Source: Candidatus Omnitrophota bacterium
GTDB lineage: Bacteria > Omnitrophota > Gorgyraeia > Zapsychrales > Fredricksoniimonadaceae
DNA: 64,000 bases
Direction: 5' to 3'
NCBI GenBank assembly: GCA_044225175.1
Contig: JBGAJA010000002.1
Coordinates: 728,991-792,990, forward strand
Every line of letters starts with the position of its first letter. Position 1 is the first letter of the stretch. Shown here piece after piece: positions 13,852-64,000 of this stretch. The notes beneath the pieces were generated by a model. The model was not told where the DNA came from, did no database searches, and saw nothing but the letters and a program-made list of their open reading frames with translations. The position numbers and the translations under genes are program-made.

Positions 13852-13855
13852 GATT

Positions 13856-19868: not shown

Positions 19869-20032
19869 TTAAGAATATTCGGCATATTCATTTTAGCGTT
19901 TTTACATTAATTAAAGATTAAGAACGTGTTTAAAATCAAGAAACCGCTTTCTAAGGCCAGACTCGCCTGACCCGCCTGCCTGATTTGCATTTTAAGTATT
20001 TATATGCTTTACTTGATGTAATATTAAAGCCT

Positions 20033-28838: not shown

Positions 28839-28853
28839 GGGATAGAGGTAAAA

Positions 28854-32334: not shown

Positions 32335-32352
32335 GAATATAAAGATTTATAA

Positions 32353-33732: not shown

Positions 33733-33746
33733 AACCAAGGCAAACA

Positions 33747-34835: not shown

Positions 34836-34837
34836 TC

Positions 34838-37167: not shown

Positions 37168-37174
37168 GGAAAAC

Positions 37175-41344: not shown

Positions 41345-42095
41345 TATTCCAGCTATTGCAGTCATTCGTTTGATTGTTTTTCTTTTAATAGCTGTAATTC
41401 TCTTCTGGCTTTATACTCGAACATTTGATTTTCTTTCAAATTCACAAATGTTTAAGATTAAAGACGTTCTAATTGATCAATCAATTGGCTTTATTGATTT
41501 CAAGCTTTTAACTGGATTGAAAGGGCAGAATATTTTCAATGCAGATTTAAAAAAAATTCACCAGCGCATATCTTCACAGTATCCCCAAATTTCCCAATTA
41601 AGAGTTACCAGGCAAATGCCTGATACGATTAAAATTTTGGCTAAGAAAAGAGATGTCCTTTTACAACTTCAGGCTGCTCACAATAAATATTTAATTGTCG
41701 ATACAGAAGGTGTGACAATGTTTTATACATCAGCTCCCTTAGCCTACCCCATGGTTAAAGGAGTTCCTCTTCAAAGGTATAAAATTATTTTAGGAACAGC
41801 TACCTCAATCAAAGAGTTAAATCTAACGATTGATCTTTTGAAGCAATTAAGACTACATCCCCATACAAGTCGTCTTAAAGTGATGGGTATAGAAGCCTCT
41901 AACGTATCCAAAATAGAATTAACTGTAATGCCTAATATTCAAATTATTATTGATCAAGAGGACCTTGTACAGAAAGTAGAGATGTTAGAGATTCTTTTGC
42001 AAAATGGTAAGATTAATTGGAAGAATGTGAAATATGTGGATATTCGTTTTAAAGAACCTATTATTAACGAAACTATCCCTCAAGATGAAAAATAA
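41322..42095 (+). CDS. ftsQ: Cell division protein FtsQ/DivIB-like
   Basis: N-terminal TM, POTRA-like region, conserved position between ddl and ftsA. Confidence 0.75.
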   Translation: MAKKSNINIPAIAVIRLIVFLLIAVILFWLYTRTFDFLSNSQMFKIKDVLIDQSIGFIDFKLLTGLKGQNIFNADLKKIHQRISSQYPQISQLRVTRQMPDTIKILAKKRDVLLQLQAAHNKYLIVDTEGVTMFYTSAPLAYPMVKGVPLQRYKIILGTATSIKELNLTIDLLKQLRLHPHTSRLKVMGIEASNVSKIELTVMPNIQIIIDQEDLVQKVEMLEILLQNGKINWKNVKYVDIRFKEPIINETIPQDEK

Positions 42096-42106
42096 AGGGT
42101 CTGCTT

Positions 42107-43339
42107 ATGTTGAGAAATATTAAACACAGTAAACATTTTTTAGGTCTTGATCTCGGTTCTCATAGTATTAAAGCAGCACTCGTTAAAGCACAAGATGATA
42201 AGAATTTAGAATTATTAAGTGTCTTTGAATCCCCATCCATAGGTCTTAGAGAAGCTTCTGTTAACGATCTCTCTGAGCTTTCCCAAACTATTCGACGTGT
42301 GGTCGATGGTGTTTGTGAAAGGTCTGCTATTAAACCTCAAGCGTTAAGATTGGGGATAAGTGCAGATCTATTATCGGTACGTCGATCTTCAGCCATTGTC
42401 CCTTTGGTTGATGCAGGAACTAAGGTAGTTGCTCCCTCAGATATAAGAAAAGTCAATCATCAGGCCCGTCTTTTGGGGGTTGCGATTGATGAAGAGATTG
42501 TCCATGACTTCGAGCAGTATTATAAAGTAGATGATGCTAATGTAGCTTTGAATCCTATGGGACTCTATGGCCGTAAAGTTGAATCTAATCTTTTGCTTTT
42601 AACAGCTAATTCAGCCCGCCTACGAAATATGACAAAGGCTGTTCATCAAGCAGGTTTGGATGTGCAAAGAGTTTCTCTTTCAAGCTATGCGGCCAGTCAG
42701 GTTGCTATGGATGAAAATTTAAAGAAAGATGGCTGCGCCTTGATTGATATAGGGGCTCATATGACGACCGTATTGTTTTTTAAGAATGGCATTGTGGCGG
42801 ATGCTCAATTTATTCGTTGGGGAGGAAACTTTATTACTCAAAGTATTTCAGATCGTTTGAGTCTAACTCTAGAGCTAGCAGAAGAGATCAAGAAAACTCA
42901 TGCGGTGGCCACTAAATTAACAACCACAGAGATTACTGGCGATATTTTAGTGAAAAGAGATAAAGGCTATGTGCCAATTCGACGACAAACAGTCTGTGAA
43001 GCTGTTGAGTGGGAAGTCGAGAATTTGATGACCCATTTAGAAACTGTTTTAAAAGGCAGTGGATTCTTTCATCAATTAAATCGAGGAGCTGTAGTTGTAG
43101 GCGGTACAGCTCTTTTGCCTGGGCTTATTGAGCGAATTGAACAAATGACTAATTTAAATGTGAGTTTGGGAATCGCAACAAAGGGCTTACAGAATCCATC
43201 CATTTTTGCAGGAGCGATTGGTTTAGCACAGATGAATTATACTCAAAAGAAAATAGAAGAAGTGAATCTAAACACCACCAAAAGTTGGGTGAAGAAAGCA
43301 TTTACAAAGTTTGAAGAAGTATGTCAGGAGTACTTTTAA
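42107..43339 (+). CDS. ftsA: Cell division protein FtsA (actin-like ATPase)
   Basis: GLDLGSHSIKAALV phosphate-1 motif, IDIGAHMTTV, GGTALLPGL; C-terminal amphipathic helix (WVKKAFTKFEEV). Confidence 0.8.
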   Translation: MLRNIKHSKHFLGLDLGSHSIKAALVKAQDDKNLELLSVFESPSIGLREASVNDLSELSQTIRRVVDGVCERSAIKPQALRLGISADLLSVRRSSAIVPLVDAGTKVVAPSDIRKVNHQARLLGVAIDEEIVHDFEQYYKVDDANVALNPMGLYGRKVESNLLLLTANSARLRNMTKAVHQAGLDVQRVSLSSYAASQVAMDENLKKDGCALIDIGAHMTTVLFFKNGIVADAQFIRWGGNFITQSISDRLSLTLELAEEIKKTHAVATKLTTTEITGDILVKRDKGYVPIRRQTVCEAVEWEVENLMTHLETVLKGSGFFHQLNRGAVVVGGTALLPGLIERIEQMTNLNVSLGIATKGLQNPSIFAGAIGLAQMNYTQKKIEEVNLNTTKSWVKKAFTKFEEVCQEYF

Positions 43340-49916: not shown

Positions 49917-51158
49917 ATGTTATTGAGAAATGTATCCCTTATTATATCTATTTCTATATTATTTATGGTTCCTTCCGTAGAAGCCTCAGCAAAACAAAAA
50001 CCTTCCAAAGATTACAAAGAATACGCTGCTTTTTTTGAAAAAGTTTATAAAACATTTGAGGATAACTATTACCTTGAACCTGATCGTAAAATTTTTGATG
50101 ATTTTTTGGTTAAATTTAAAACCAAGATTTATGCTCAGTTAAGTGGTGAAGGTAAAAGTGATGATTATGTTAAATGGCGAAGTGCTTGGTATTTAGTAGA
50201 TTCTCTGAAGTCCAAAGAAGATCGATTTTCCCAATTTTATCCTCCAAAACCTGCTGAAAAGTTCCAAAAGGAGGCTTTAGGGCAGAATGTAGATTTAGGG
50301 ATTGAAGGTAATAAGTCTGATGTTGGGTTCATTGTGACTCGTATGGAACCACGCTCAGATGCTTATGAAAAGGGTTTAAGAGAAAATGATTTGTTAACGG
50401 CTATTGATGGATTAGATCTTAAAAAACTTACTCAAGAAGATATTGTGAAGAAGCTGACTCCTTTGGTTAATACTAAGGTTAAGTTAACATACCTAGAGCA
50501 TGATACAAAGGCTGCTAAAGCCATTGACGTTGTAAGTAAGGAGTATTTTAAACAGGAAGTGTTTTTAAGGCCTGTAGATGTTCCCGGAGTTTTTGCATTA
50601 GAAATTGTGCATTTTAATCGAACAACTGCAGAAGATTTGTTTCGTTATTTGCAATTTATTGAGCAGCAGAATCCTAGAGGTTTGGTCATCGACCTTAGAG
50701 GAAACCCCGGTGGTCCGCCACTAGCAGCCCGTGAAATAGCTTCCATGTTTTTAAAAGGTGGTGATGAGCTTGTTTATTTTCAAAAAAGGGGTCAACCTCG
50801 TGCGGATTTAGATATTCCTTCAATTCCAGCGCAATATCAATATAAAGGTCCCATTGTAATTCTAGTGAATCAAGACAGCGGTAGTTGTTCTGAGCTTTTT
50901 GCGGGAATTATGCAATATTATAAGCGGGCAGTTATTTTTGGGACAAATACAGCAGGACAAATGCTATTAAAATCAATGTTCCCCATGGAAGATGGGTCAA
51001 TGGTGGCTTTAGTTGTAGCGCGAGGGTATTATCCCAATGGAATTCCTTATAGTTTTAGTGGAGTGGTTCCGGATCAAGTGATTAATGATGCTCCTAAAGA
51101 AGGTTTGATTAATCTTGCCGCAGCTTATATGGTCATGAGCGCTCAAAAGAAACAATGA
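49917..51158 (+). CDS. C-terminal processing (tail-specific) peptidase, family S41
   Basis: Signal peptide; PDZ-like region; VIDLRGNPGGP catalytic Ser motif and a downstream Lys region. Confidence 0.8.
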   Translation: MLLRNVSLIISISILFMVPSVEASAKQKPSKDYKEYAAFFEKVYKTFEDNYYLEPDRKIFDDFLVKFKTKIYAQLSGEGKSDDYVKWRSAWYLVDSLKSKEDRFSQFYPPKPAEKFQKEALGQNVDLGIEGNKSDVGFIVTRMEPRSDAYEKGLRENDLLTAIDGLDLKKLTQEDIVKKLTPLVNTKVKLTYLEHDTKAAKAIDVVSKEYFKQEVFLRPVDVPGVFALEIVHFNRTTAEDLFRYLQFIEQQNPRGLVIDLRGNPGGPPLAAREIASMFLKGGDELVYFQKRGQPRADLDIPSIPAQYQYKGPIVILVNQDSGSCSELFAGIMQYYKRAVIFGTNTAGQMLLKSMFPMEDGSMVALVVARGYYPNGIPYSFSGVVPDQVINDAPKEGLINLAAAYMVMSAQKKQ

Positions 51159-51493
51159 TACAGCTGTTTTTATTAATGATAGTGCAATTGGTCATAGCCG
51201 TTATTGTAATTCTTGTTCTTAAAAGGCTTTTAGACCGTGAACTTAAGAAGGCTGCACTTGAAAAGTTTCAAACTTTAAAGATTAATGGGGAGAAGACCAT
51301 TACTATTTATTACGCAGGACAGTTATCTGCCCATGTTAAGGAAGAATTATTAGATGTTGCGAGAAATAAGTATAAAGAAAGTAATCTTGTTTTTGAACAG
51401 AACCAAATTCTTAAAGGCGGCTTAGTGATTGTCGTTGATGAACAGATGCTTGATTTCAGCGTATCTAATCGTCTAGAAAATTTTTGGTTATGA
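51155..51493 (+). CDS. Hypothetical small membrane protein
   Basis: 112 aa; N-terminal TM (LFLLMIVQLVIAVIVILVL); translationally coupled between the S41 peptidase and GT2 genes. Confidence 0.4.
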   Translation: MIQLFLLMIVQLVIAVIVILVLKRLLDRELKKAALEKFQTLKINGEKTITIYYAGQLSAHVKEELLDVARNKYKESNLVFEQNQILKGGLVIVVDEQMLDFSVSNRLENFWL

Positions 51494-52209
51494 ATTTAAA
51501 TTCCATAAAGATACTAATTATTGTTCCTGCTTTTAACGAGAGCGGAAATATTGCGCGTACGATTAGTGATATTAAGAATCAGAATTTGCCTCTTGATATT
51601 GTTGTTATTGATGACGGATCAACTGATACAACCGTTCGTGAAGCTGTTGCTGCAGGAGCCAACGTTGTTTCATTGCCCTTTAATTTAGGCATAGGTGGTG
51701 CAGTCCAAACTGGTTTTAAGTATGCTCTCAAGCATGATTATGATATTGCGATCCAAATGGATGGTGATGGACAGCATGACGGTAATTTCCTTGTTAAATT
51801 AATTAATCCTATTTTAGAAAATCAAGCGGATATGGTAGTGGGGAGTCGTTTTATTGAAGATAATGGGGGCTTCAAATCTTCTTTTGCTCGTCGAATAGGA
51901 ATTCGTTTCTTTGTTTCGTTAATCAATTTTCTTACTGGATTGAAGATTACTGATCCTACGTCTGGTTTTAGGGCCCATAATAAGAAAATGATTGCTGCTT
52001 TTGCGCGTAGTTATCCGCAAGATTTTCCAGAACCTGAAGCTATTGTGGTAGCTAAACATATTGGTGCTCAAATTAATGAGGTTTCTGTTTTGATGCGCAG
52101 ACGCGAAGATGGTAGTAGTTCGATTCGTCATATGAAAAGTGTCTATTATATGGTGAAGGTGACCTTTGCTATTTGCTTACATATGATTCAATCTCCTCAA
52201 AGGAAATAG
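51484..52209 (+). CDS. GT2 polyprenyl-phosphate glycosyltransferase (DPM1/GtrB/ArnC-like)
   Basis: ILIIVPAFNE...VVIDDGSTD...QMDGDGQHD (DxD region) typical of the GT-A fold GT2 family. Confidence 0.8.
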   Translation: MVMNLNSIKILIIVPAFNESGNIARTISDIKNQNLPLDIVVIDDGSTDTTVREAVAAGANVVSLPFNLGIGGAVQTGFKYALKHDYDIAIQMDGDGQHDGNFLVKLINPILENQADMVVGSRFIEDNGGFKSSFARRIGIRFFVSLINFLTGLKITDPTSGFRAHNKKMIAAFARSYPQDFPEPEAIVVAKHIGAQINEVSVLMRRREDGSSSIRHMKSVYYMVKVTFAICLHMIQSPQRK

Positions 52210-52566
52210 ATGATGAATATACATTTTCTCGCAATCGCCTTGTCTCTTTTAATTTTTTTGTTAGTTGTGGATTTGGTTCGCCGTCAAAAATTAACTTTTA
52301 AATATGCTTTGGCTTGGTTGATGGTTTCAGGATCTGCAGTTTTCTTTGCTATTTTTTATAAGTTTCTTTTTAAGATAGCAGACTTTTTGGGTTTTGAGCT
52401 TCCTAGCAACTTTATTTTTTTCACATTATTTTGTGTCTTCGTGTTCTTAAGCCTTGTGCTAACAGTGTTTTTGTGTCAGCAGAATAATCGTAATGACACT
52501 ATGGCTCAAAAAATTGCGCTTTTAGAATTTGATATTAAGCAAATTAAACAAAAAACCTCAACCTAG
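52210..52566 (+). CDS. Small 3-4 TM membrane protein (DUF2304/GtrA-like companion of GT2 enzymes)
   Basis: 118 aa, hydrophobic, immediately downstream of the GT2 gene as in many GT2/small-membrane-protein pairs. Confidence 0.5.
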   Translation: MMNIHFLAIALSLLIFLLVVDLVRRQKLTFKYALAWLMVSGSAVFFAIFYKFLFKIADFLGFELPSNFIFFTLFCVFVFLSLVLTVFLCQQNNRNDTMAQKIALLEFDIKQIKQKTST

Positions 52567-52577
52567 AAAGCTTTCAC

Positions 52578-53561
52578 TTGATTCTTAGTGTTATTGTGCC
52601 TGCCTATAATGCTCAGGGAACGATTGGTAAAACCCTGAAAGCTTTAACCGAACAAGATTTTTCAGGATCTTTTGAGATTATCGTTGTTGATGACGGGTCT
52701 ACGGATCAAACTGCCGAAATTATACGCACATTTCCTAAAGTTCAATACATTTATCAGCCCAATGCTGGTCCTGGGACGGCTCGTAATCATGGAGCAAAAG
52801 TCTCTCAAGGGCAAGTACTTGCCTTTACGGATTCAGATTGTATTCCTCATAAAGATTGGCTTACTCGTTTGATGGAAGGGTTTATATCAGATGATGTTGG
52901 GGTTGTTATGGGTAGTTATGGAATTGTTAATAAGGAGAGTTTATTAGCTTTCTGTGTTTATAAAGAAATTATTTTTCGGCATAACAAATTTTTGAGTGAT
53001 TTTCCAAAAGTTTTTGGAGGGTATAATTTTTGTATAAAAAAAATTGTTTTTGAGCAGGTAGGTGGTTTTAATACTTCCTATAGGAATGCAAGCGGGGAAG
53101 ACAATGATCTAAGTTATAAGATCATTTCAAGTAATTGGCGCATTTATTTTGAGCGTAAAGCCCTTGTAGACCACTATCATCCAACTCAATTGAATAAGTA
53201 TTTGAAAGAACAGTTTCGTCATGGTTTTTGGAGGGTGCGTATGTACATGGATCACCCTGGCATGGCTTCTGGGGATGGGTATACGTTCTGGAAGGATATT
53301 GTAGAGATACCTCTAAGTCTGTTTATCATAGTATTTATTTTGCTAAGTCCTTTTAATCTAATAAGTTTTAAAGATTTGTTTTTTTATCTTTTCTTTCCTT
53401 TTTTGTTTTTGGAAATTTTTTTCGCACAGAGGATGCTTCATGATATCAATAAAGAATTTTTTTGGGGATTTGTTATGTTTTTAAGAAGTTTTAGCAGAGC
53501 TTTAGGTTTGTCGACGGGAATTTTGTATATTTTTATTAAAAAAAATTTAAATAAACCTTGA
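52578..53561 (+). CDS. GT2 glycosyltransferase with C-terminal membrane anchor
   Basis: SVIVPAYNAQ...IIVVDDGSTD...FTDSDCIP motifs; hydrophobic C-terminus; alternative (TTG) start. Confidence 0.75.
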   Translation: MILSVIVPAYNAQGTIGKTLKALTEQDFSGSFEIIVVDDGSTDQTAEIIRTFPKVQYIYQPNAGPGTARNHGAKVSQGQVLAFTDSDCIPHKDWLTRLMEGFISDDVGVVMGSYGIVNKESLLAFCVYKEIIFRHNKFLSDFPKVFGGYNFCIKKIVFEQVGGFNTSYRNASGEDNDLSYKIISSNWRIYFERKALVDHYHPTQLNKYLKEQFRHGFWRVRMYMDHPGMASGDGYTFWKDIVEIPLSLFIIVFILLSPFNLISFKDLFFYLFFPFLFLEIFFAQRMLHDINKEFFWGFVMFLRSFSRALGLSTGILYIFIKKNLNKP

Positions 53562-53671: not shown

Positions 53672-54268
53672 GTGAATATGGCTAAAGAGACAGCCGAACA
53701 AAAGTTACTCAAAGCACTTCAGAAAAAATCACCAGGAGCAGTTCCTTCCGTCGGCAAAAAGCTTGATGAGAAGAAGAAATTAAATTTTTCTTTTTCAATT
53801 TTTGATCTCAATAAAATTTTATTTATAGCCATTCTTGTTTGTCTCGCCATTTTAATTTATCAATTTCATTCCGGTTCCGTTTTAATTAATAAAGATGTCA
53901 GTTTTCTAGATCAAGTCAAAACCAACCCTGCCAAAGAACAAATAAATAATCTCAAAGAAAAAAACGATGTTAAGTATTACATTAATAGTTTTGGAAATCG
54001 TAATATTTTTAAACCATACGACATTTCTCTTGGCAAAGCAGCTGCAGGCCAGCCAGATTTAGCTAAGCGTTTAACAAAATATAAACTTGTTGGAGTTGCT
54101 TGGCTTGATCTTCCTGAATCTGCCTCAATTATGGTTGAAGATTCTCAAACGAAAACAACATATTTTCTTAAAACTGGAGAAAAATTAGAAGGCGTAACAG
54201 TTAAGACTATCTATACGGATAGAGTAGTCTTCAGTTACGAAAATGAGGAGACGACAATTAAGCTATGA
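53672..54268 (+). CDS. Bitopic inner-membrane protein, possible secretin-associated (PilP/PilN/GspC-like) component
   Basis: Lys-rich cytoplasmic N-terminus, single TM (ILFIAILVCLAILIYQF), about 120-aa periplasmic beta-rich C-terminus. Stop overlaps the secretin start (ATGA). Confidence 0.45.
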   Translation: MNMAKETAEQKLLKALQKKSPGAVPSVGKKLDEKKKLNFSFSIFDLNKILFIAILVCLAILIYQFHSGSVLINKDVSFLDQVKTNPAKEQINNLKEKNDVKYYINSFGNRNIFKPYDISLGKAAAGQPDLAKRLTKYKLVGVAWLDLPESASIMVEDSQTKTTYFLKTGEKLEGVTVKTIYTDRVVFSYENEETTIKL

Positions 54269-55935
54269 TAAAACATATCCTTAAACCCAAACTGATTTTA
54301 TTGTTGGTTTTGTTTTTTACGATGCCAATGATTCTTATTGCATCCCGAGCCTACTCTCAGGAAGAAAATGCTTCGGACGCTAATGAGAATGCAGGGGCGG
54401 AGCTTCCTAAACCAATTATTTTAACCGAACCTAAAGAGCCTCTTGAAGATCGTATGCAGCGCAAGATTACTTTAGATGTCCGCGATATGAATGTCGTCGA
54501 TGTTATTAAATTTCTTGCTCAAAAAGGTGAATTTAATGTGGTTATTTCCCCTAATGTTGATGGTCGCACAACAGTGTTGCTACATGCTGTTTCAATCCAA
54601 GATGCCTTAGACATTGTTTCGATTTCAAATAAGCTGGCTTATCACACAGAAGGTCAAATTCTTCAAATAATGTCTGCTGCAGAATATGAAGCGCTTTATG
54701 GAAAACAATTTGGTGATAAAACACAAGTTACAATTATTCATTTGCAGTATTCAAAACCAAGCTATGTATTAGCTGCTTTGGATAACATGAAAAGTAATAT
54801 TGGAAAGATTATTATTGATGAAGATACAGGAACAGTTGTTTTAGTAGATACTCCTCAATCAATTACTGTGATGAAAAAAGCAATCGAACAGATTGAACGA
54901 CCATTAGATACTTTTGTTTATGATCTTAAGTATGCAAAGGCAGATGTGGTTGCTGAGAAATTGCGTTCAAGGATTGATGCCAAAGCTGTTGGATCAATCA
55001 CTGCTGATGAACGTTCTAATCAATTGCTTGTCAGGGTTTTTCCAGGAAGACATGATGAAGTAGAGAAGATCATTAAAAGCTTAGATGAGCCAACCAAAGA
55101 AGTTTTAATCGAAGCTCGTGTTTTGGAAATTATCTTGAAACCTAATTACGATATGGGAATTGATTGGAAAGATCAAATCTTTAATAATGGTAAAAGTAAA
55201 TTTAGTGTATCTGGTAATTATCTTAATGATTCCAGCCCTTCTGATCCTTTAAATTCTGTTTTTACCAGAATAGGTGTAGGTAATGCTAATACCAAAGACT
55301 TTACTTTAGCTATTAGATCTTTACAACAAGTCAGTGATACTAAAATCCTTTCAACCCCTCAAATATTAGTAACTAATAATGAAGAAGCTAAGATTCACAT
55401 TGGGGATACCGTTCCTTATATAGTCTCAACAACCAATGGTACGGGTGATAATGCTGTAAGAAGCGAAGACGTAAGATTTATAGATGTTGGACTTAAGTTG
55501 GATGTTGTTCCAGTCATCAATGATGATGGAATGGTTACCATGAGACTTCGTCCAGAAATTTCTTCAGTTGTTGGAAAAATTACTTCCCAAGGCGGTGGAA
55601 TTCCCCAAGTTAATAAAACTGAGGTTGAAACTAGCGTTATGGTTCTTGATGGCCAAACTATTGTTTTGGCAGGGTTAAGAAAAGAAGACAAATCACACAT
55701 TAAAAAAGGACTTCCAGTCTTAATGAATGTCCCATATTTAGGAAATTTATTTTCCAGCACATCAGATGCAATAACTTCTACTGAAATCGTTATTTTAATT
55801 ACGCCACATATTATTAAAGGTAGCGATGATTATGCAAAAGTTCAAGGAACTGTTAAACCTGCTAAGAATTATGATGAAAACTTTAAAATGAAGGAACCGG
55901 TTCAAAGTGACAATCAACCACCGGCTAAATACTAA
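54265..55935 (+). CDS. Secretin-family outer-membrane channel (GspD/PilQ-like)
   Basis: Signal peptide; N0-like domain; canonical secretin domain (ILSTPQILVTNNEEAKIHIGDTVPY...VNKTEVETSVMVLDGQTIVLAGL...PVLMNVPYLGNLF...IVILITPHII). Confidence 0.9.
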   Translation: MIKHILKPKLILLLVLFFTMPMILIASRAYSQEENASDANENAGAELPKPIILTEPKEPLEDRMQRKITLDVRDMNVVDVIKFLAQKGEFNVVISPNVDGRTTVLLHAVSIQDALDIVSISNKLAYHTEGQILQIMSAAEYEALYGKQFGDKTQVTIIHLQYSKPSYVLAALDNMKSNIGKIIIDEDTGTVVLVDTPQSITVMKKAIEQIERPLDTFVYDLKYAKADVVAEKLRSRIDAKAVGSITADERSNQLLVRVFPGRHDEVEKIIKSLDEPTKEVLIEARVLEIILKPNYDMGIDWKDQIFNNGKSKFSVSGNYLNDSSPSDPLNSVFTRIGVGNANTKDFTLAIRSLQQVSDTKILSTPQILVTNNEEAKIHIGDTVPYIVSTTNGTGDNAVRSEDVRFIDVGLKLDVVPVINDDGMVTMRLRPEISSVVGKITSQGGGIPQVNKTEVETSVMVLDGQTIVLAGLRKEDKSHIKKGLPVLMNVPYLGNLFSSTSDAITSTEIVILITPHIIKGSDDYAKVQGTVKPAKNYDENFKMKEPVQSDNQPPAKY

Positions 55936-56709
55936 TTGAAGCGGAGAAACCTTATGGGTAACCACAACTGGTCTAGAGTTTCAAAACACATTACAGTAAT
56001 GATTATTTTAATGGTTTGTTGGGCAATGGGACAACACCCAGCAGTTTATGCTCAAGATAATACAGATGTTCCAGCTGAACTTGGAACACCACAACCACAA
56101 GATGATCGCGAGCAATTTGTTAAAGAAATTCGACGTGTTGAAAATTTAAACAGAAAATATACTAAAGAAATTGAAGAAATCAAGTCGCTTTTATCTGAAA
56201 AAGATGAAGATTTCCAAAAAAGAATGAAGAGTTTAGAGGATAAATTAGTTTCTCAGCAAGGCGAAAGCAAAAAAACAATTGTAGATGAGAAAAATCAACA
56301 AACTTCCAAAGAATTAGAAGTTAAAACCAATGAAATGCTTTCAAAAGGTGTTGATTTAGATTTGGATGATCAACAATTTAAAGAAGAATTAGCTAAAGCA
56401 CATTACAACATGGGAAATATTTATTTTGAACGTGGCGAATATCAAAGAGCGGTCGTCGAATATTATCAAGCTGTTGATTTAACTCCAAATGATCCAGATA
56501 CACACTACAATTTAGCCTTCGTCAGTGGAGAGTATTTAGGTGACCAAGAAACTGCTCTTAAGCATTATCAATGGTATTTGTACCTAAAACCTAATGCAGC
56601 TGACGCCAGTAATGTTAAAGCAAAGATTATACAAGCTAAATTACACTTTAGAGCTAAGGTAGATTCAATAATTGATAAAGATAACGGTCACTACAATCTT
56701 GTTCGTTAA
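55936..56709 (+). CDS. TPR-repeat protein with signal/anchor and coiled coil (possible secretin pilotin/accessory)
   Basis: Hydrophobic N-terminus; K/E-rich coiled coil; C-terminal TPR motifs (AHYNMGNIYFERGEYQRAVVEYYQAVDLTPNDPDTHYNLAF). Confidence 0.6.
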   Translation: MKRRNLMGNHNWSRVSKHITVMIILMVCWAMGQHPAVYAQDNTDVPAELGTPQPQDDREQFVKEIRRVENLNRKYTKEIEEIKSLLSEKDEDFQKRMKSLEDKLVSQQGESKKTIVDEKNQQTSKELEVKTNEMLSKGVDLDLDDQQFKEELAKAHYNMGNIYFERGEYQRAVVEYYQAVDLTPNDPDTHYNLAFVSGEYLGDQETALKHYQWYLYLKPNAADASNVKAKIIQAKLHFRAKVDSIIDKDNGHYNLVR

Positions 56710-56737: not shown

Positions 56738-58303
56738 ATGACCCAGAAGTTTTCACAAATTGTATTCACACTAATAGCTATTTGTCTTTTGACAACAGTT
56801 GCACAAGCTAACAATTTGTCCATATCTAACGTTACTTTAGGGACCAGAAATCCTGGTGCCAATTCTCTTATTGTTAAATTTAATGTGAGTTGGGATCATT
56901 CTTGGCACAATAAGATTAATCATGATGCCGCATGGCTTACTATTCGACTACACAATACATCTGATACCACAACCAATAAAAAAATTTGTGAGGTTAGTGC
57001 GAGTGGAATAAATCCAGCAGGGTCTTCCGTCGGAACAGCTACAAATTTGGAATTTTATGTACCTTCAGATAAAAAAGGGGCATTTTTAAGAAGATCTTCT
57101 AATGGTAACGTTATTAATGTGTCCACACAAGGTGCTCAGTTGACAATTGATTACAGTAGTTGTGGTTTTTCTGATGATGACCAAATTATTGCCAGCGTTT
57201 TTGGGGTTGAAATGGTTTTTATTCCTCAAGGTGATTTTTACGCTGGAGATTATGATACTAGCACTGCTTCATTAGATCAGGGAACTGCAGATAATCGTCC
57301 ATGGCACATAATTAATGAAAACTCAATTTCAGTAAACAATCCTTCTACAGGTGGATTTCGCTATATTTCTAATAATAACTCAGGAGAAGTAGCCACAGGA
57401 GCATCGTTTGCTATTCCTAATAATTTTCCCAAAGGTTACGCTCCATTTTATGTCATGAAATATGAAATTACTGAAGGTCAATGGGTTGAATTTATCAATT
57501 CTTTAGGATCTGCTGCTGCCCGCTCTAATCGCGATTTGACCGATAATAATCATAAGAATTCCGATGCAGTGACAGCAAGAAATACAATTAGTTGTTCAGG
57601 TTCGCCATTGAGTTGTTCTACTCTACGTCCTGCCCGCGCAGTAAGTTTTTTAAGTTGGATGGATTTAGCAGCATTTTTAGATTGGAATGCTCTTCGACCT
57701 ATGAGTGAATTAGAGTTTGAAAAAATTGCCAGAGGTCCAAGTTTACCAATCCCCGGTGAATATGTATGGGGAAATACTATAATTGCACCAGCTGCTGATT
57801 TAAGCGGTGATGAAGATGGCTCCGAAACAATCACTACTACAGATGCCAATGTCAATATTCTTGGTAATTCAAGCTTTGTTGGGGGAGATGCCCAAGCAGG
57901 ACCTATACGATCCGGAATTTTTGCTACAAGTGCAACTAATAGAACAACCGCTGGTGCTGGTTACTATGGAGTCATGGAATTGTCAGGTAATCTTAAAGAA
58001 CACGTAGTCACAATCGGAAATCCTTCAGCGCTTACTTTCGACGGTACCCAAGAAGGAGATGGTGTTTTGACCTCAGTTTCTGGATTTGAAGGTAATGCGA
58101 ATACTATTTCTTGGCCAGGAACTGATGCTACTCCAGCAAATGGTGTAACAGGAGCGGATGGTTCTGGTTTTCGAGGTGGATCATGGGCTGATTTGACTAA
58201 TAGTTTATTAAGGACATCTGATCGTAGTGAAGCTTCGTTATCTTCAACATCAGCAGCAGATAATTTTGGCGGTAGAGGGGTTCGAACATATGATGGCAAT
58301 TAA
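56738..58303 (+). CDS. Secreted FGE-sulfatase (SUMF1/DUF323)-fold protein, GldJ/GldK-like, paralog A
   Basis: Signal peptide ...TTVAQA; beta-rich N-terminal domain; FGE-fold motifs FYVMKYEITEGQW, RPARAVSFLSWMDLAAFLDWNALRPMSELEFEKIARG, VWGN, RGGSW. Confidence 0.75.
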   Translation: MTQKFSQIVFTLIAICLLTTVAQANNLSISNVTLGTRNPGANSLIVKFNVSWDHSWHNKINHDAAWLTIRLHNTSDTTTNKKICEVSASGINPAGSSVGTATNLEFYVPSDKKGAFLRRSSNGNVINVSTQGAQLTIDYSSCGFSDDDQIIASVFGVEMVFIPQGDFYAGDYDTSTASLDQGTADNRPWHIINENSISVNNPSTGGFRYISNNNSGEVATGASFAIPNNFPKGYAPFYVMKYEITEGQWVEFINSLGSAAARSNRDLTDNNHKNSDAVTARNTISCSGSPLSCSTLRPARAVSFLSWMDLAAFLDWNALRPMSELEFEKIARGPSLPIPGEYVWGNTIIAPAADLSGDEDGSETITTTDANVNILGNSSFVGGDAQAGPIRSGIFATSATNRTTAGAGYYGVMELSGNLKEHVVTIGNPSALTFDGTQEGDGVLTSVSGFEGNANTISWPGTDATPANGVTGADGSGFRGGSWADLTNSLLRTSDRSEASLSSTSAADNFGGRGVRTYDGN

Positions 58304-59948
58304 AACCATAGCATTCACACTACTAGCTTTCTTGGTATTAGTACCATCTAGCTATGCCAATAATTTACAGTTAAAAAATTTGAATGTGGTAAGTTCAGAT
58401 ACAGCTTCAGAAACGATGACTTTCTCTTTTGACTTAACTCAAGAAAATAGCTGGAGAACTAATACCAATAATACAATTAGTTATGATGCTGTATGGGTTT
58501 TTATGAAATATTCAACTGATGGTGGAATTACCTGGAAGCATGGTACCATGAATGGAAGCGGTGTTAATCCCGCAGGTTTTTACGCTCCAGCTAATTTCCA
58601 GATTGAAGTCCCAGTCATTGACCAAAAAGGTTTCTTTTTGCATCGTTCTGATTTTGGTTCAGGAAACATTGCTCCAACAGGAATCAAATTTGTATGGAAC
58701 TATCACCAAGATGGTTTAACAACTGCGGTGGCTGAAGCTTCAAATACAATTCATAAAATATTCGGTATTGAAATGGTCTATATTCCCACAGGCGCATTTT
58801 ATGCGGGAGATGGGGACAGTTCTGCAGAATTCCATCTAAAAGCTGGATCAGCAGACAATACTCCTTGGTATATTCAAAGTGAAACTGGTTTCATGACAAC
58901 CAATACTCCTAATGGAGGGTATTATTACGTAAGTACTGGAGCTACTGGTGAATATGCAGATGGTGCCCCCTTCCAAATAACAAATGATTTTCCTAAAGGT
59001 TATAATGCATTTTATTTAATGAAATATGAATTAACTGAAGGACAATGGGTCAGCTTCTTTAATACACTTTCTAATGCAGCGAAAGTCAATCGCGATATTA
59101 CAACAGGTACAGGTGTAGGTGGAAAGGCCTCTGATGGTGTGGTTAATCGTAATACTATCGCTTGGGACCACTTACAACCTTCATTACCGGCTACCACTTT
59201 AAGACCATCTCGACCTGTTAGCTATGTTTCATGGCCTGATGTTGCAGCTTATGCAGCATGGGCAGGTCTTCGTCCTATGACAGAATTAGAATTTGAAAAA
59301 GCTGCACGTGGGAAAGGTAAAGAAGCCATTGCTGATGAGTTTGCTTGGGGTAATACAAGTTATTCTAGCGCTAATCCTTCTGATATCGATCCTAATGCTG
59401 ATGAAAATGGCACAGAAACAATTTTGACTGGTTCTGCAAACTTTAATGGTAATTCTTCAGGGTTTACCAGTGGTGATGGACGTCCAGGTGGGCCAGCAGA
59501 TGGTCAAGTTGGACCTCTTCGTTCTGGAATTTTTGCCTCTGCTCTTTCGAATAGAAATAAGAGCGGAGCAGGTTTTTATGGCAATATGGAACTTTCCGGT
59601 AATTTATATGAGCCCGTTGTCACCATAGGTCGTACTCAAGGACTTTCTTTTCTGGGTTCTCATGGAAATGGTGAATTAACAAGTGCTTCCGGATATGAAG
59701 GTTTTGCATCCAATAGTGATTGGCCTGGATATGATTCAGCACATGGTGTTGTAGATCACACTAAAGGTATTGGTTACCGAGGGGGAGATTTTAAATCATC
59801 TCTTCGTGCTTTTGAAATTTCTTCTCGAACAAATGCAGCTAAAGATCCAGATACTCAAGGATGTCTTCAACGTTATGATTCAGGTGCAGGATGCGTTGGG
59901 TTAAGTGGAGTCTTTTACGGTGGGCGTTTAGCTAGAACAGCACCTTAA
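58290..59948 (+). CDS. Secreted FGE-sulfatase (SUMF1/DUF323)-fold protein, GldJ/GldK-like, paralog B
   Basis: Start at MMAIKTIAFTLLAFLVLVPSSYA (signal peptide), overlapping paralog A by 14 nt. Colinear with paralog A: FYLMKYELTEGQW, RPSRPVSYVSWPDVAAYAAWAGLRPMTELEFEKAARG, AWGN, RGGDF. Confidence 0.75.
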   Translation: MMAIKTIAFTLLAFLVLVPSSYANNLQLKNLNVVSSDTASETMTFSFDLTQENSWRTNTNNTISYDAVWVFMKYSTDGGITWKHGTMNGSGVNPAGFYAPANFQIEVPVIDQKGFFLHRSDFGSGNIAPTGIKFVWNYHQDGLTTAVAEASNTIHKIFGIEMVYIPTGAFYAGDGDSSAEFHLKAGSADNTPWYIQSETGFMTTNTPNGGYYYVSTGATGEYADGAPFQITNDFPKGYNAFYLMKYELTEGQWVSFFNTLSNAAKVNRDITTGTGVGGKASDGVVNRNTIAWDHLQPSLPATTLRPSRPVSYVSWPDVAAYAAWAGLRPMTELEFEKAARGKGKEAIADEFAWGNTSYSSANPSDIDPNADENGTETILTGSANFNGNSSGFTSGDGRPGGPADGQVGPLRSGIFASALSNRNKSGAGFYGNMELSGNLYEPVVTIGRTQGLSFLGSHGNGELTSASGYEGFASNSDWPGYDSAHGVVDHTKGIGYRGGDFKSSLRAFEISSRTNAAKDPDTQGCLQRYDSGAGCVGLSGVFYGGRLARTAP

Positions 59949-59985: not shown

Positions 59986-62900
59986 ATGTCAGATAAAAAA
60001 TTAAAATTGAAAACTTCAAATCGTCTACTACTATGCTTGGCTCTGTTAGCGTTTTCTGTAGTCGGTTTCGTTGTCTCTAAAGCCTTTGCTCAATACACTG
60101 GCGGCAATCAAACTTCTATTGAAGAAGCCACGATTGGAAGCAACATTTATGTTGGCGGTTCTCAAACCAATACTCCCTATGCTAGCTCTGATGGAACAGG
60201 ATCTTTGTCCCATGGTGCTGCAACCAAACTCGTTTTTAGTGTTATTCCTTCAGCAGAAAAACACGGTATAGCCTTTAGTCGCCAACCTGTTGTAGTCATT
60301 GAAGATGCTAATGGAAATATAGTTACTAGTGATAATTCAACTCAAGTAACCATTGCAATTCTTAATAATCCAGGCAATGGTGTCTTAAGAGGAGCTACTA
60401 CCATCCAGGCAGTTAATGGTTCTGCTAATTATTCCGACTTAAACATTACAAAAGCTGGACAACTTTATACATTGCAAGCAACTGCTGAAGGATTAACATC
60501 AGCTATTTCTTCTCCATTTGATGTACAGGTTGGAACAGGTCCTCAGGGTACTGCTACTTGGATAAGTACTTTAGGAGCATACCGTATTTTTACATGGATT
60601 GTAGATAACAACCAAAGACTGCCTTTAACCGGTGATACCTGTAATGATACTGTAATTTATAAAGCTGATGGGACTTCCGAAACAACGCTAACGATGGGAA
60701 CACCAGATCTCGTAAATAATTGGTGTAAATCTGATTTGACTTGGACACCTTCTAACTCTCAAATTTCTTATTTTGCAAATATTTCAATTATTCACTCTTC
60801 TACGACTCTTGAAAATTATATACCTTTAACTTTATCTGGTGGTTTTGCTCGTGATACATATGGTAACAATATCAACTGGCAAGACATTGCTCTCATCAAG
60901 GCTAAAACAGACACCATTAACTGGCAAGATATTGGAGTTATTAAAAGTAGCACAGATACAGTTAATTGGCAGGATGTCAGTGTTATTCTTTCCAATACAA
61001 ATTCTATTAAATCCATCACCAGTACTATTTCTACAAATGTCAATTGGCAAGACATTGATCGTATGTCCCAATCAGGTGTCAATTGGATGGATGTGGCTCG
61101 AACAACTTTAGTTGGGATTAATTGGAATGATTTCTCAATATTATCAAATGTTGGTATTAATTGGGCTGATTTTAGCGTCCTTACTAAGGGTGGGATCAAT
61201 TGGAATGATATTAGCGTGTTAGGTAAAGCTCATGTTAATTGGGCTGATTTCTCAAAACTTTCTTCTTTAGGAATTAATTGGAATGATATGGACAAGCTTT
61301 TTAAGGCCGGCGTGAATTGGCAAAGCTTTTCCTTATTATCAAATACAGGAATTAATTGGTATGACATGGCTATCATGTCTGGAGCAAGAATTGATTGGTC
61401 AAACACAATTAATTGGTACAGTCTTGCCGCTTTAACAACTTCAGGAGTAAATTGGAATGATTTAGCTATTTTATCAGTCAATAATATTAATTGGAATGAT
61501 ATCAAAATTTTGTCTACCGTTGGGATCAATTGGAATGATTTGAATATTTTAAGTAAGTCAGGAATTAATTGGCGTGATATAGATCTTTTAACCACGGCTG
61601 GAATTAATTGGGTAGACTTTGGAATTTTAGGTAAAGCTGGAATCAATTGGAATGATTTAGGAGTGTTAGCTAAAACAGGAATTAATTGGCAAGATTTAGG
61701 AGTTTTTACTAAAGCTGGCATCAATTGGAACGATTTAGGTGTTTTAACTAAAACGGGAATTAATTGGTTGGATTTACAAGTTTTATCTCGCACAGGAATT
61801 AATTGGAGTGATATTAATGTTTTAAGTAAGACAGGAATTAACTGGCAAGACTTTACGGCATTGAGTAAAGTCGGAATCAACTGGAATGATTTAGGAGTAT
61901 TAGCAAAGACTGGAATCAACTGGCAAGACTTAGGAGTGTTAAGTAAGGCTGGAATCAACTGGAATGATTTAGGAATATTAGCCAAGACAGGAGTTAATTG
62001 GCAAGATTTTGGAGTACTAAGTAAGGCTGGAATTAACTGGAATGATTTAGGAGTATTGGCCAAAAGTGGAATTAACTGGCAAGATTTTGCAGCAGTGAGC
62101 AAGGTAGGGATCAATTGGAATGATTTGCAAGTCATGCATTCACTTGGAATCAACTGGCAAGATTTTGCAGCGTTGAGTAAAGTTGGAATCAACTGGAATG
62201 ATTTAGGAGTATTAGCAAAGACCGGAATCAACTGGCAAGACTTTGCAGTATTAAGTAAGAATGGAATCAACTGGAATGATTTAGGAGTGTTGGCAAAGAC
62301 AGGAATCAACTGGCAAGATTTTGGAGTGTTGAGTAAGACGGGAATTAACTGGAATGACTTAAATGTGTTAAGTAGAACTGGAGTTAATTGGCAAGATTTT
62401 GGAGTGTTAAGTAAGGTTGGAGTCAACTGGAATGATTTAGGAGTGTTAGCCAAGAGTGGAATTAATTGGCAAGATTTAGGAGTATTGAGTAAGACAGGAA
62501 TCAATTGGAATGATTTAGGAGTATTAGCAAAGACAGGAATCAACTGGCAAGATTTAGGAGTGTTAAGTAAGACCGGAATTAACTGGAATGACTTAAATGT
62601 GTTAAGTAGGACCGGAGTAAACTGGATGGATTTAGCAGTGTTCAGTAAAGCCGGAGTTAACTGGAATGATTGGGGAATATTAGGAAAGAGCGGAATCAAT
62701 TGGCAAGACTTTGCAGCGTTGAGCAAGGTAGGGATCAATTGGAATGACCTAGTTACATTAAGTAAGACCGGAGTTAACTGGCAAGATTTTGCAGCATTAA
62801 GTAAGACGGGAATTAACTGGAATGACTTAAATGTGTTAAGTAGAACCGGGATTAACTGGATAGATTTAGCAGTGTTTAGTAAATCTGGAGTTAACTGGAA

Positions 62901-64000
62901 TGATTGGGGAATATTAGGAAAGAGTGGAATCAACTGGCAAGACTTTGCAGCGTTGAGTAAAGTTGGAATCAACTGGAATGATTTAGGAGTGTTGGCGAAG
63001 ACCGGAATCAACTGGCAAGATTTAGGAGTATTAAGCAAGACAGGAATTAATTGGAATGACATGCAGGTATTGCATGCAACAGGAATCAACTGGGTTGATT
63101 TAAGTGTATTTAGCAAGGTAGGAATCAATTGGAATGATTGGAGTGTGTTAGGCAAGAGTGGAATTAACTGGCAAGATTTTGGAGTATTAAGCAAGGTAGG
63201 AGTTAATTGGAATGATTTAGGAGTGTTGGCGAAGACCGGAATCAACTGGCAAGATTTAGGAGTGTTGAGTAAGGTTGGGATCAATTGGAATGATATTGGA
63301 GTATTAGCGAAGAGTGGAATTAACTGGCAAGATTTAGCAGCCTTTAGTAAGGCAGGGGTTAACTGGAATGATTGGGGAATATTAGGAAAGAGTGGAATCA
63401 ACTGGCAAGATTTTGCAGCATTGAGCAAAGTTGGAATCAACTGGAATGATTTAGGAGTATTAGCAAAGACCGGAATCAACTGGCAAGACTTAGGAGTGTT
63501 AAGTAAGGCTGGAATCAACTGGAATGATTTAGGAGTATTAGCAAAGACTGGAATTAACTGGCAAGATTTAGCAGCCTTTAGTAAGGCAGGGGTTAACTGG
63601 AATGATTGGGGAATATTAGGAAAGAGTGGAATCAACTGGCAAGACTTTGCAGCATTGAGCAAAGTTGGAATCAACTGGAATGATTTAGGAGTATTAGCAA
63701 AGACCGGAATCAACTGGCAAGACTTTGGAGTGTTAAGTAAGGCTGGAATCAACTGGAATGATTTAGGAGTATTAGCAAAGACAGGAATCAACTGGCAAGA
63801 TTTTGGAGTATTAAGCAAGGTAGGAGTTAACTGGAATGATTTAGCAGTGTTAGCAAAGACCGGGGTTAACTGGCAAGATTTTGCAGCAGTGAGTAAGGTT
63901 GGGATCAATTGGAATGATTTGCAAGTCATGCATTCACTTGGAATTAACTGGCATGATTTTGCAGCATTGAGCAAAGTCGGAGTTAACTGGAATGATTTAG
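59986..64000 (+). CDS. Giant secreted tandem-repeat protein (3' end beyond window): signal peptide, Ig-like N-terminal region, then at least 80 copies of a 13-aa G(I/V)NW(N/Q)D(L/F)(G/A)(V/A)L(S/A)K(T/A) repeat
   Basis: ATG at 59986-59988. MSDKKLKLKTSNRLLLCLALLAFSVVGFVVSKAFAQ signal peptide. Manual translation of this frame is open to the window end. Residues about 60-160 resemble a bacterial Ig-like domain (VxVxDANGNxV...GxAxxGxAxF..LxIxKAGxYTLxAxAxGL). Repeats begin about 60868. Confidence 0.8.
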   Translation, partial: MSDKKLKLKTSNRLLLCLALLAFSVVGFVVSKAFAQYTGGNQTSIEEATIGSNIYVGGSQTNTPYASSDGTGSLSHGAATKLVFSVIPSAEKHGIAFSRQPVVVIEDANGNIVTSDNSTQVTIAILNNPGNGVLRGATTIQAVNGSANYSDLNITKAGQLYTLQATAEGLTSAISSPFDVQVGTGPQGTATWISTLGAYRIFTWIVDNNQRLPLTGDTCNDTVIYKADGTSETTLTMGTPDLVNNWCKSDLTWTPSNSQISYFANISIIHSSTTLENYIPLTLSGGFARDTYGNNINWQDIALIKAKTDTINWQDIGVIKSSTDTVNWQDVSVILSNTNSIKSITSTISTNVNWQDIDRMSQSGVNWMDVARTTLVGINWNDFSILSNVGINWADFSVLTKGGINWNDISVLGKAHVNWADFSKLSSLGINWNDMDKLFKAGVNWQSFSLLSNTGINWYDMAIMSGARIDWSNTINWYSLAALTTSGVNWNDLAILSVNNINWNDIKILSTVGINWNDLNILSKSGINWRDIDLLTTAGINWVDFGILGKAGINWNDLGVLAKTGINWQDLGVFTKAGINWNDLGVLTKTGINWLDLQVLSRTGINWSDINVLSKTGINWQDFTALSKVGINWNDLGVLAKTGINWQDLGVLSKAGINWNDLGILAKTGVNWQDFGVLSKAGINWNDLGVLAKSGINWQDFAAVSKVGINWNDLQVMHSLGINWQDFAALSKVGINWNDLGVLAKTGINWQDFAVLSKNGINWNDLGVLAKTGINWQDFGVLSKTGINWNDLNVLSRTGVNWQDFGVLSKVGVNWNDLGVLAKSGINWQDLGVLSKTGINWNDLGVLAKTGINWQDLGVLSKTGINWNDLNVLSRTGVNWMDLAVFSKAGVNWNDWGILGKSGINWQDFAALSKVGINWNDLVTLSKTGVNWQDFAALSKTGINWNDLNVLSRTGINWIDLAVFSKSGVNWNDWGILGKSGINWQDFAALSKVGINWNDLGVLAKTGINWQDLGVLSKTGINWNDMQVLHATGINWVDLSVFSKVGINWNDWSVLGKSGINWQDFGVLSKVGVNWNDLGVLAKTGINWQDLGVLSKVGINWNDIGVLAKSGINWQDLAAFSKAGVNWNDWGILGKSGINWQDFAALSKVGINWNDLGVLAKTGINWQDLGVLSKAGINWNDLGVLAKTGINWQDLAAFSKAGVNWNDWGILGKSGINWQDFAALSKVGINWNDLGVLAKTGINWQDFGVLSKAGINWNDLGVLAKTGINWQDFGVLSKVGVNWNDLAVLAKTGVNWQDFAAVSKVGINWNDLQVMHSLGINWHDFAALSKVGVNWNDL
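60868..64000 (+). repeat. 39-bp (13-codon) coding tandem repeat array, organised as a 78-bp higher-order repeat, degenerate at the 5' side and near-identical toward the 3' side
   Basis: Repeated units such as ggaatcaactggcaagacttaggagtgttaagtaaggct and ggaatcaactggaatgatttaggagtattagcaaagacc recur head-to-tail to the end of the window. Confidence 0.9.

Follow-up and report, generated by a model that had tools for sequence, protein, structure and literature searches.

Two adjacent genes in a 64,000-nucleotide stretch of contig JBGAJA010000002.1 of a Candidatus Omnitrophota bacterium (hereafter the window) encode exported, paralogous proteins, A and B, with a C-type-lectin fold of the subtype known from formylglycine-generating enzyme (FGE). 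Both lack the catalytic cysteines of FGE, both stand between a secretin module and the gene of a giant repeat protein, an arrangement conserved across the phylum Omnitrophota, and both are homologous to a binding protein that is varied by a diversity-generating retroelement (DGR). In the reading that we favor, and to which we give about an even chance, A and B are coupled, exported, non-enzymatic binding proteins of fixed specificity in a type-II-like secretin/giant-protein locus, most likely exported through the secretin or docked at it and acting with the giant protein in attachment. The two genes and their parts are the following, in window positions and with residues counted in amino acids (aa); L084 is a related locus that carries the DGR.

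56738..58303, + strand: FGE-like protein A, 521 aa
56738..56809, + strand: Sec signal peptide of A, aa 1-24, predicted cut between AQA and NNL, no lipobox Cys; helix 2-17 in the AlphaFold2 model
56810..57187, + strand: N-terminal beta-sandwich of A, family-specific, aa 25-150; strands 28-138 in the model, predicted local distance difference test score (pLDDT) mostly >90
57194..58300, + strand: FGE-subtype C-type-lectin-fold domain of A, aa ~153-521, without the catalytic Cys
58163..58291, + strand: segment of A equivalent to a DGR variable region, aa 476-518 (SGFRGGSW...GGRGVRT), from alignment with the L084 target and template
58290..59948, + strand: FGE-like protein B, 552 aa, translationally coupled to A
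58290..58358, + strand: Sec signal peptide of B, aa 1-23, predicted cut between SYA and NNL, no lipobox; read from the sequence
59769..59936, + strand: segment of B equivalent to the DGR variable region, aa 494-549, from the same alignment
59844..59915, + strand: B-specific 24-aa loop insertion DPDTQGCLQRYDSGAGCVGLSGVF, aa 519-542, with the only two Cys of B (C525 and C535)

The open reading frame (ORF) given for B in a mechanical ORF list opens at GTG 58227. The true start is almost certainly ATG 58290, which yields 552 aa, because a purine-rich, Shine-Dalgarno-like GGTAGAGGGG lies about 10 nt upstream of this ATG, the start overlaps the stop of A by 14 nt, and a database protein of exactly 552 aa (P0121) is 100% identical to B. 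A and B share 43% identity across 525 aa (BLASTP, E = 3e-120), a paralogy that, on this alignment, is far beyond chance. A preliminary description of the window had presented the two as adjacent, colinear, secreted paralogs with an FGE-sulfatase-fold domain, which is what we find; its statement that they are roughly half identical holds for the paralogy but not for the figure. In the metagenome proteins P0281 (1093 aa) and P0414 (1105 aa) the unit of N-terminal domain plus FGE-like domain is doubled within a single chain, and P0281 ends in a borderline CBM9-like module. Because the A and B genes overlap, the tandem arrangement is universal and the two-unit fusions P0281 and P0414 exist, A and B probably work as a pair.

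Both proteins have signal peptides, as described before and as judged by eye from the sequence (MTQKFSQIVFTLIAICLLTTVAQA before NNL in A, MMAIKTIAFTLLAFLVLVPSSYA before NNL in B), and the mature N-terminus is kept among 142 family members (A24 in at least 97%, N25 and L27 in 90-97%). An AlphaFold2 model of the A monomer, built from 86 homologues, reached a pLDDT of 86.9 and a predicted template modeling score (pTM) of 0.90. It consists of a signal helix, a beta-sandwich (residues ~25-150) and the FGE-like domain (~153-521), and its strands, which run through residues 28-162, agree with the beta-rich N-terminal domain that had been proposed. The scores of A (43.5 bits) and B (63.6 bits) for PF03781, the Pfam FGE-sulfatase family, both exceed the gathering cut-off of 23.3, whereas sub-threshold scores had been named as the sign of a wrong assignment. 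The top 34 Foldseek matches of the A model in the PDB were FGE, CalU17 and EgtB/OvsA (E 1e-6 to 9e-4); in a PDB profile search as in Foldseek, true formylglycine-generating enzymes ranked first, followed by CalU17 and EgtB/OvsA.

The N-terminal domain matched no Pfam family at E<0.05 and nothing significant in NCBIfam or among PDB sequences, and is present in 885 clusters at 50% identity. Some of its relatives also carry beta-propellers of the SBBP, DUF5122, FG-GAP or sortilin type, or a CBM9-like module, which are modules typical of extracellular proteins. Two weak matches of the N-terminus, one to the NCBIfam model 'PACE-CTERM putative S-layer protein' (E 6e-4 to 5e-3, cut-off 110 bits) and one to a CofB pilin domain (E 0.008), are not relied on.

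In FGE the copper-binding Cys pair directly follows GGS (GGSFLCHESYC in 6s07 and 5nxl). An alignment with FGE, which the preliminary description had called for, placed RGGSWADLTNSLLRTSDR (RGGSWADLTN) of A and RGGDFKSSLRAFEISSR (RGGDFKSSLR) of B, neither with a Cys pair, at the site of the FGE motif GGSFLCHESYCNRYR (the GGSxxCxxxxC pair). When the two proteins were checked for the FGE catalytic Cys as a mark of membership, A gave RGGSWADLTNSLL and B gave RGGDFKSSLRAF, both without it, and no Cys column stands at the FGE catalytic place among 86 aligned family members. As the catalytic cysteines are absent, a non-catalytic role, as had been supposed, is likely, and by this alignment A and B are most likely not FGE enzymes. 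Homologues are named 'SUMF1/EgtB/PvdO family nonheme iron enzyme' or 'formylglycine-generating enzyme' in the databases; the public iron-enzyme annotation is most likely wrong. Other catalytic attributes were also missing. The EgtB and SenA models of NCBIfam matched ~50-110 residues at 15-30 bits, with cut-offs of 360-420, and neither a DinB-type iron domain nor the His triad was found in A or B, the N-terminal domain being a beta-sandwich. There was no sulfatase family among the window ORFs scanned and no C/S-x-P-x-R (CxPxR) motif in the proteins of the cluster.

We rejected the Cys-containing tail of B as a copper or catalytic site. It had been likened to the copper site of FGE, but its two cysteines are off the catalytic position, poorly conserved, and part of a lineage-specific insertion in the loop equivalent to the DGR variable region. 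The 24-aa insertion was found in 53 second-copy genes of the window's clade, and the Cys pair in <30% of 41 B-type sequences, the closest relatives only; elsewhere among these sequences Y or F and S or N stand at the two positions. A lacks the insertion, and the C-termini do diverge, as previously noted. A carries four invariant Cys of its own (C84, C142, C286 and C293), located in ISCSG/LSCST and in the N-terminal domain and confined to the window's clade.

The closest functional relatives that we found appear, from sequence comparison, to be DGR-diversified binding proteins of the C-type-lectin/FGE fold and not ring-forming parts of type IX secretion systems (T9SS). Two related loci, L083 and L084, hold a lone family member with the ANNL mature N-terminus and both domains, 43% identical to A over 513 aa, which is the target of a complete DGR:

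L084, 9932-13426: target, variable region, template repeat and reverse transcriptase
L083, 5463-9176: target, variable region, template repeat and reverse transcriptase

The variable region is formed by the last 128-142 nt of the target gene, and the template repeat lies 865 or 1060 nt downstream. When the two copies were aligned, all 20 differences within the repeat were confined to adenines of the template (10 A>G, 9 A>T, 1 A>C), a restriction that is the signature of a DGR. The adjacent reverse transcriptase has the motifs IGNLTSQ and YMDD, and the template encodes AGNRGGNWNNAATNARASDRNNAANTNANRNNNNGGRAVKT. The target gene is followed by the gene of a giant secreted protein (2438 aa) with a different middle between its A[DQ]YTGG N-terminus and its VxxW[YF]E-type C-terminus, and then by a homologue of X435, a protein of the extended locus described below. 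Another locus, L086, encodes a 1081-aa family paralog, P0290, followed by two bAvd/23S-rRNA-IVP-like genes (13490-13852 and 15655-16017); Avd is a DGR accessory protein, and the called genes of L086 include no reverse transcriptase.

The L084 variable region aligns with residues 476-518 of A and 494-549 of B, the C-terminal segments in which A and B diverge, and on this alignment residues 476-518 of A are a predicted ligand-binding surface. The scaffold of the variable region (RGG, S.R and GGR.xRT) is invariant throughout the family, the positions diversified by the DGR are those that differ among A/B orthologues, and the 24-aa insertion of B falls inside the equivalent loop. The C-terminal loops of the lectin-fold domain would thus form a binding surface in A and B too, with a fixed and not a hypermutated specificity. 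No other class of DGR targets is as large as that of the FGE-sulfatase-type C-type-lectin domains, and the solved example among the category 'b' targets, TvpA of Treponema denticola, is ligand-binding and without FGE activity (PMC5758913); among DGR targets of cellular genomes, most are proteins for binding or adhesion that are exported (PMC8144416). A and B resemble the TvpA-type proteins in having an FGE-sulfatase Pfam domain without FGE activity residues, a C-terminal RGGSW...GGR.VRT scaffold with putative binding loops, an N-terminal extension and an export signal. They differ in not being diversified, and in forming a conserved tandem pair, with an N-terminal beta-sandwich of its own, in a secretin/giant-protein/type-II-like locus.

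The genes on either side of the pair in this locus are:

53672..54268, + strand: p198, small bitopic protein, weakly GspC/PilP-like, first gene of the module
54265..55935, + strand: secretin, outer-membrane channel of the GspD/PilQ type
55936..56709, + strand: TPR protein with a coiled-coil N-terminal half and TPR_11/TPR_1 matches
59986..64000, + strand: 5' part of a giant gene that encodes a secreted repeat protein and continues beyond the window; signal peptide aa 1-35, cut between AFA and QYTGG

From p198 to the giant gene, the six genes are spaced by -4, 0, 28, -14 and 37 nt (p198 overlaps the start of the secretin gene by 4 nt, and the TPR gene follows the latter with a 0-nt gap). No terminator-like site lies between them; a promoter and terminator scan gave fewer sites than in shuffles and was uninformative. 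The secretin matched Pfam Secretin (163 bits) and Secretin_N (79 bits), and among PDB sequences it matched GspD and PilQ structures at 4e-37 to 1e-30, with GspD 5wln the best (4e-37), while staying below the NCBIfam equivalog cut-offs for both GspD and PilQ. The matches of p198 to Pfam T2SSC (E=0.0019) and NCBIfam GspC_delta (E=0.0009) were both under cut-off, and it had nothing significant in searches of Pfam, NCBIfam and PDB sequences. The TPR protein, which gave weak, sub-threshold NCBIfam matches to PilW and Tgl, is a possible secretin assembly factor. In locus L004 an extra gene just upstream of p198 (4319-5221) encodes a 300-aa AAA_22/AAA_16 ATPase that presumably resembles the ExeA/GspA secretin-assembly ATPases.

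The giant protein begins with a conserved region of ~290 aa, followed by >75 copies of a 13-aa repeat (39-nt period) with the consensus G-I-N-W-[NQ]-D-[LF]-x-V-L-x-K-x ('GINW'). AlphaFold2 predicts, with moderate confidence (pLDDT 76, pTM 0.54), one 9-10-residue helix per repeat and an alpha-solenoid as a whole, and Foldseek found only a designed helical toroid and BurrH to be alike. No Pfam, NCBIfam or PDB family was found for the protein; Pfam 'hits' on the repeat region comprised zero significant stretches and were dismissed as repeat artefacts, and a homologue search with the N-terminal region returned short fragments only. The 13-aa period is common to the orthologous gene in every lineage checked. 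In 56 of 62 loci the fetched DNA ends before this gene does, and the gene commonly breaks assemblies; in locus L001 a relative was called at 8087 aa. Two minus-strand ORFs, 61230-63974 (914 aa) and 60816-61199 (127 aa), with 'SCQLIP...' repeats, are antisense artefacts of the repeat gene.

Homologues of A number >900 and those of B >2000, and the named ones are almost all from metagenome-assembled genomes of Candidatus Omnitrophica/Omnitrophota. When each species was represented by one genome in a scan, at least 568 genomes proved to have relatives, and the 80 best are Omnitrophota or apparently mislabelled bins. When the window proteins were compared with the fetched loci by tblastn, p198, secretin and TPR genes stood directly upstream of the FGE-like gene(s) in 74 of 84 loci, and a homologue of the giant-gene N-region stood downstream in 62 of the 84. 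Over 46 loci, A and B had a median identity to the window of 57.5%; the secretin reached 63%, and the values of p198 (40%) and the giant N-region (45%) were lower. Distant lineages are without the housekeeping neighbours of the window (S41 peptidase, GT2, DUF2304, GT2) and retain p198, secretin, TPR, two tandem FGE-like genes and the giant gene. The preliminary description had considered a pair next to a secretin, and outside a T9SS context, to be unusual. The pair does adjoin a secretin in a window without T9SS genes, and the arrangement proves to be non-trivial and conserved across the phylum.

Since the window ends inside the giant gene, its continuation was followed in related loci. Locus L066 (15815-21572) holds a complete and short giant protein (868 aa, ~33 repeats, with a coiled-coil-like tail ending VVKAWYESE), followed by X435 and then by alpha-, epsilon-, b/delta- and gamma-like subunits of an F-type ATPase; it thereby links the FGE pair, via the GINW protein, to X435 and the ATPase. 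X435 is a bitopic protein of 435 aa with N- and C-terminal hydrophobic segments and with nothing significant in Pfam, NCBIfam and PDB sequence searches. A search with the ATPase alpha-like subunit gave 53 loci from metagenome contigs (L087-L139), and in these X435 and GINW repeats lie upstream of the alpha gene wherever the flanking DNA suffices. The order after X435 is alpha, epsilon, c, a 76-aa ORF, b/delta, gamma, beta, GspE, GspF, Peptidase_MA_2, GspG and N-methyl pseudopilins. In L117 (8685-20603) the matches were T2SSE at 1e-125 (plus MshEN), T2SSF at 2e-54 and T2SSG at 6.5e-31, and GspE, GspF and GspG also follow the ATPase cluster in >15 further loci. These three genes are outside the window, and it is L066 that ties them to the FGE pair.

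This extended locus fits the report of Omnitrophota giant genes near type-II-like secretion genes (bioRxiv 10.1101/2023.11.21.568195), and it matches the 'symbiotic' locus with a type-2/3 F-ATPase and type IVa pilus genes of Seymour et al. 2023 (PMC10066038). As pieced together from several loci, it resembles them in uniting a secretin, a GspC-like protein, GspE/F/G and pseudopilins with a non-respiratory F-type ATPase cluster and an exported giant protein. It differs in the giant protein, which in the literature has many transmembrane helices and SecA-like domains, and here has a single signal peptide and a 13-aa helical repeat. The terms FGE, sulfatase and SUMF were not found in the Omnitrophota papers searched, two of which do not mention a secretin, and we found no description of the GINW repeat protein or X435 there; a literature search for FGE-sulfatase together with secretin gave nothing relevant. 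Some type II systems likewise carry the gene of a dedicated cargo within or next to the gsp cluster, as pulA with the pul genes and sslE/yghJ with the gsp genes.

Elsewhere in the window, a canonical dcw cluster (mraW, a penicillin-binding protein gene, murE/F, mraY, murD, ftsW, murG, murC, ddl, ftsQ and ftsA) followed by glycine-cleavage genes occupies positions 27568-43339 (+ strand), so that this is a core chromosomal region and not a mobile island. The dcw cluster includes a Peptidase_MA_2 gene (38236-39024, + strand) whose product is 31% identical to that of the Peptidase_MA_2 gene between GspF and GspG. The GT2, DUF2304, GT2 trio upstream of the secretin module (51484-53561, + strand) is conserved in the window's clade only, and possibly glycosylates envelope or exported proteins. 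Alone between the S41 peptidase and GT2 genes, a 112-aa ORF (51155-51493, + strand), syntenic in many related loci, encodes an N-terminal transmembrane helix and a C-terminal ATP-synthase delta/OSCP-like domain (E 3.5e-8). A 2335-aa ORF (19985-26992, + strand) has no Pfam match and only weak NCBIfam matches, to an HSP90-family ATPase and to a sacsin-like P-loop domain (E ~2e-4).

We considered the possibility that A and B act in other ways than as fixed binding proteins. They belong to the same family as the L083/L084 targets and their C-terminal segment is homologous to the variable region, so they might themselves be active DGR variable proteins in this genome. To this we attach almost no probability: the 64-kb window contains no reverse transcriptase and no template-like repeat of the A or B gene (only chance matches, E>=0.17), and the 44 differences between A and a 92% identical orthologue are spread over the whole protein, with 3 in residues 481-520. 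An active DGR was rejected for want of a reverse transcriptase, a template repeat and a hypervariable segment. The pair might, alternatively, work in the envelope in some general way that has nothing to do with the secretin or the giant protein, the synteny being a matter of conserved gene order in small genomes. The upstream genes for glycine cleavage, LplA, S41 peptidase and GT2 are indeed also syntenic in the window's clade. Yet the housekeeping neighbours are lost in distant lineages while p198, secretin, TPR, the two FGE-like genes and the giant gene stay together, these genes overlap or lie 0-37 nt apart with no terminator between them, and in L083 and L084, too, the genes of a giant secreted protein and of an X435 homologue come after the family member; we consider this explanation very unlikely. 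Only slightly less improbable is a role of A and B as enzymes in the periplasm, members of the SUMF1/EgtB/PvdO superfamily that modify the giant protein or another envelope substrate. They share with FGE (SUMF1) and EgtB/OvoA/SenA the fold, the Pfam family and the motifs MVxIPxGxF, RPxRxVSxxSWxDAxAxxxW, LRPxTExExEKAxRG, GNxxE and RGG; true FGEs are the best structural matches, database names point to iron enzymes, and 74 residues, many of them charged, are kept in at least 97% of members. PvdO is, furthermore, a periplasmic FGE-fold protein that lacks the Cys pair and is still required for an oxidation step. A and B differ from the FGE/EgtB group by their extra N-terminal beta-sandwich and their Sec export. 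Against an enzymatic role, the Cys pair is absent from both paralogs and family-wide, there is no DinB iron domain, the EgtB and SenA scores are far under cut-off, and the neighbourhood offers no sulfatase substrate and no CxPxR motif. The would-be substrate groove is moreover the region hypermutated by the DGR in a relative, which is incompatible with a fixed active site.

The remaining alternative casts A and B as structural components of the secretin machine in the periplasm, where a hetero-oligomeric ring or track under the outer membrane, comparable to PorK, GldK and GldJ, would dock or guide the giant protein. PorK has a non-catalytic FGE fold and serves as a docking hub (PMC12421860), and GldK/PorK couple to outer-membrane partners by a disulfide link through the cysteine of an RGCF motif (PMC12635249). 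A and B share with these proteins a repurposed FGE fold without both catalytic cysteines (PMC12421860, PMC12635249), the occurrence of two paralogs within one system, as with GldJ and GldK, and the association with an outer-membrane export machine and giant repeat surface proteins, as in the case of SprB with GldJ/K (PMC12635249). A ring or track would also suit the position of A and B directly after the secretin and TPR genes in a tight operon, their conservation, which equals that of the machine genes, the maintained mature N-terminus, and conserved motifs in low-pLDDT loops that could become ordered upon binding. The likeness to GldJ and GldK put forward in the preliminary description did not hold up, however. 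Neither A nor B has a lipobox Cys at +1, and A24 and N25 are conserved at the predicted cleavage site; they are thus not lipoproteins. No RGC motif (RGCF) was found in A or B, and B has no conserved Cys. The NCBIfam library, which we take to include the TIGRFAM GldJ and GldK models, gave no match to them at E<=10, with the proviso that HMMER filters may hide very weak matches. PorK was missing from the top 50 Foldseek matches in the PDB and no PorK chain was found by sequence profile at E<=10, A and B being nearer to true FGEs than to PorK, by structure and by profile. None of PorL/M/N (GldL/M/N) and Sov/SprA occurs among the window ORFs of at least 150 aa or the called genes of related loci, and the partner is a secretin of the type II/type IV pilus kind. 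Finally, a close family member is diversified by a DGR, as typically happens to ligand-binding proteins rather than to ring subunits, and extracellular-type modules are fused to relatives. A structural ring role, which we regard as unlikely, is now less likely than binding.

The pair belongs to a conserved envelope locus of the Omnitrophota in which, taking the related loci together, a GspC-like gene, secretin, TPR, A, B, the giant repeat gene, X435, the F-type-ATPase-like cluster, GspE, GspF, GspG and pseudopilin genes follow one another. In the reading of A and B as binding proteins, both would be exported to the periplasm by Sec, A would associate with B, and the two would pass through the type-II-like secretin, or dock at it, together with the giant alpha-helical repeat protein. 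They would then act as recognition or adhesin subunits of a surface attachment apparatus, their ligand lying presumably on a host or another surface. Several points weigh against this. Proteins that are exposed on the surface for host recognition are usually less conserved than A and B, whose conservation would suit a part of a machine as well. The relative targeted by the DGR occurs singly and has no secretin beside it, so that its role may carry over only in part. The missing FGE cysteines are not enough on their own to exclude catalysis, as PvdO illustrates. The placement of A and B outside the cell or on the giant protein is one that we infer, and so is the presence of ATPase and GspEFG genes behind the giant gene of the window, deduced from L066 and the shared giant-gene family.

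A broader proposal, which we put forward tentatively and regard as doubtful, is that the whole locus encodes one undescribed envelope nanomachine of the Omnitrophota, made up of the secretin module with its GspC-like and TPR proteins, A and B, a giant fibre that is a single chain of helical repeats with conserved ends, the bitopic X435, a non-respiratory F-type-ATPase-like motor and a GspE/F/G pseudopilus. The giant fibre would be threaded through the secretin or held at it, with the A/B pair as a recognition head. The ATPase or the pseudopilus would put it in motion or under tension, so that it could work as a harpoon or a gliding leg for attachment to host cells and movement on them. If true, such a machine would be functionally convergent with the gliding of Mycoplasma mobile, which uses giant surface proteins and an F1-like motor, and with that of the Bacteroidota, which uses FGE-fold proteins and the giant SprB.

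Non-catalytic FGE-fold proteins were already known as DGR targets and as parts of the T9SS. New are a fixed tandem pair with its own N-terminal domain, conserved across a phylum, and the position of this pair between a secretin and a giant 13-residue-repeat protein, in a locus with a Mycoplasma-like F-type ATPase and GspEFG. For a family present in at least 568 species genomes, the annotation as 'SUMF1/EgtB/PvdO nonheme iron enzyme' would be corrected. The Omnitrophota are abundant, uncultured and ultra-small bacteria, thought to be attached to other cells or to prey on them. Being putative binding proteins beside a secretion pore and a giant repeat protein, A and B are candidates for the grip on a host or a surface. 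They would provide two concrete candidate proteins for partner recognition in this phylum, tied to the locus of secretin, giant repeat protein and type-2/3 F-type ATPase that is known from the literature. One lineage hypermutates a protein of the same family by a DGR, as would be expected of a host-recognition surface. With named candidates and a DGR-diversified relative at hand, the question of how the Omnitrophota recognize their partners may thus become testable.

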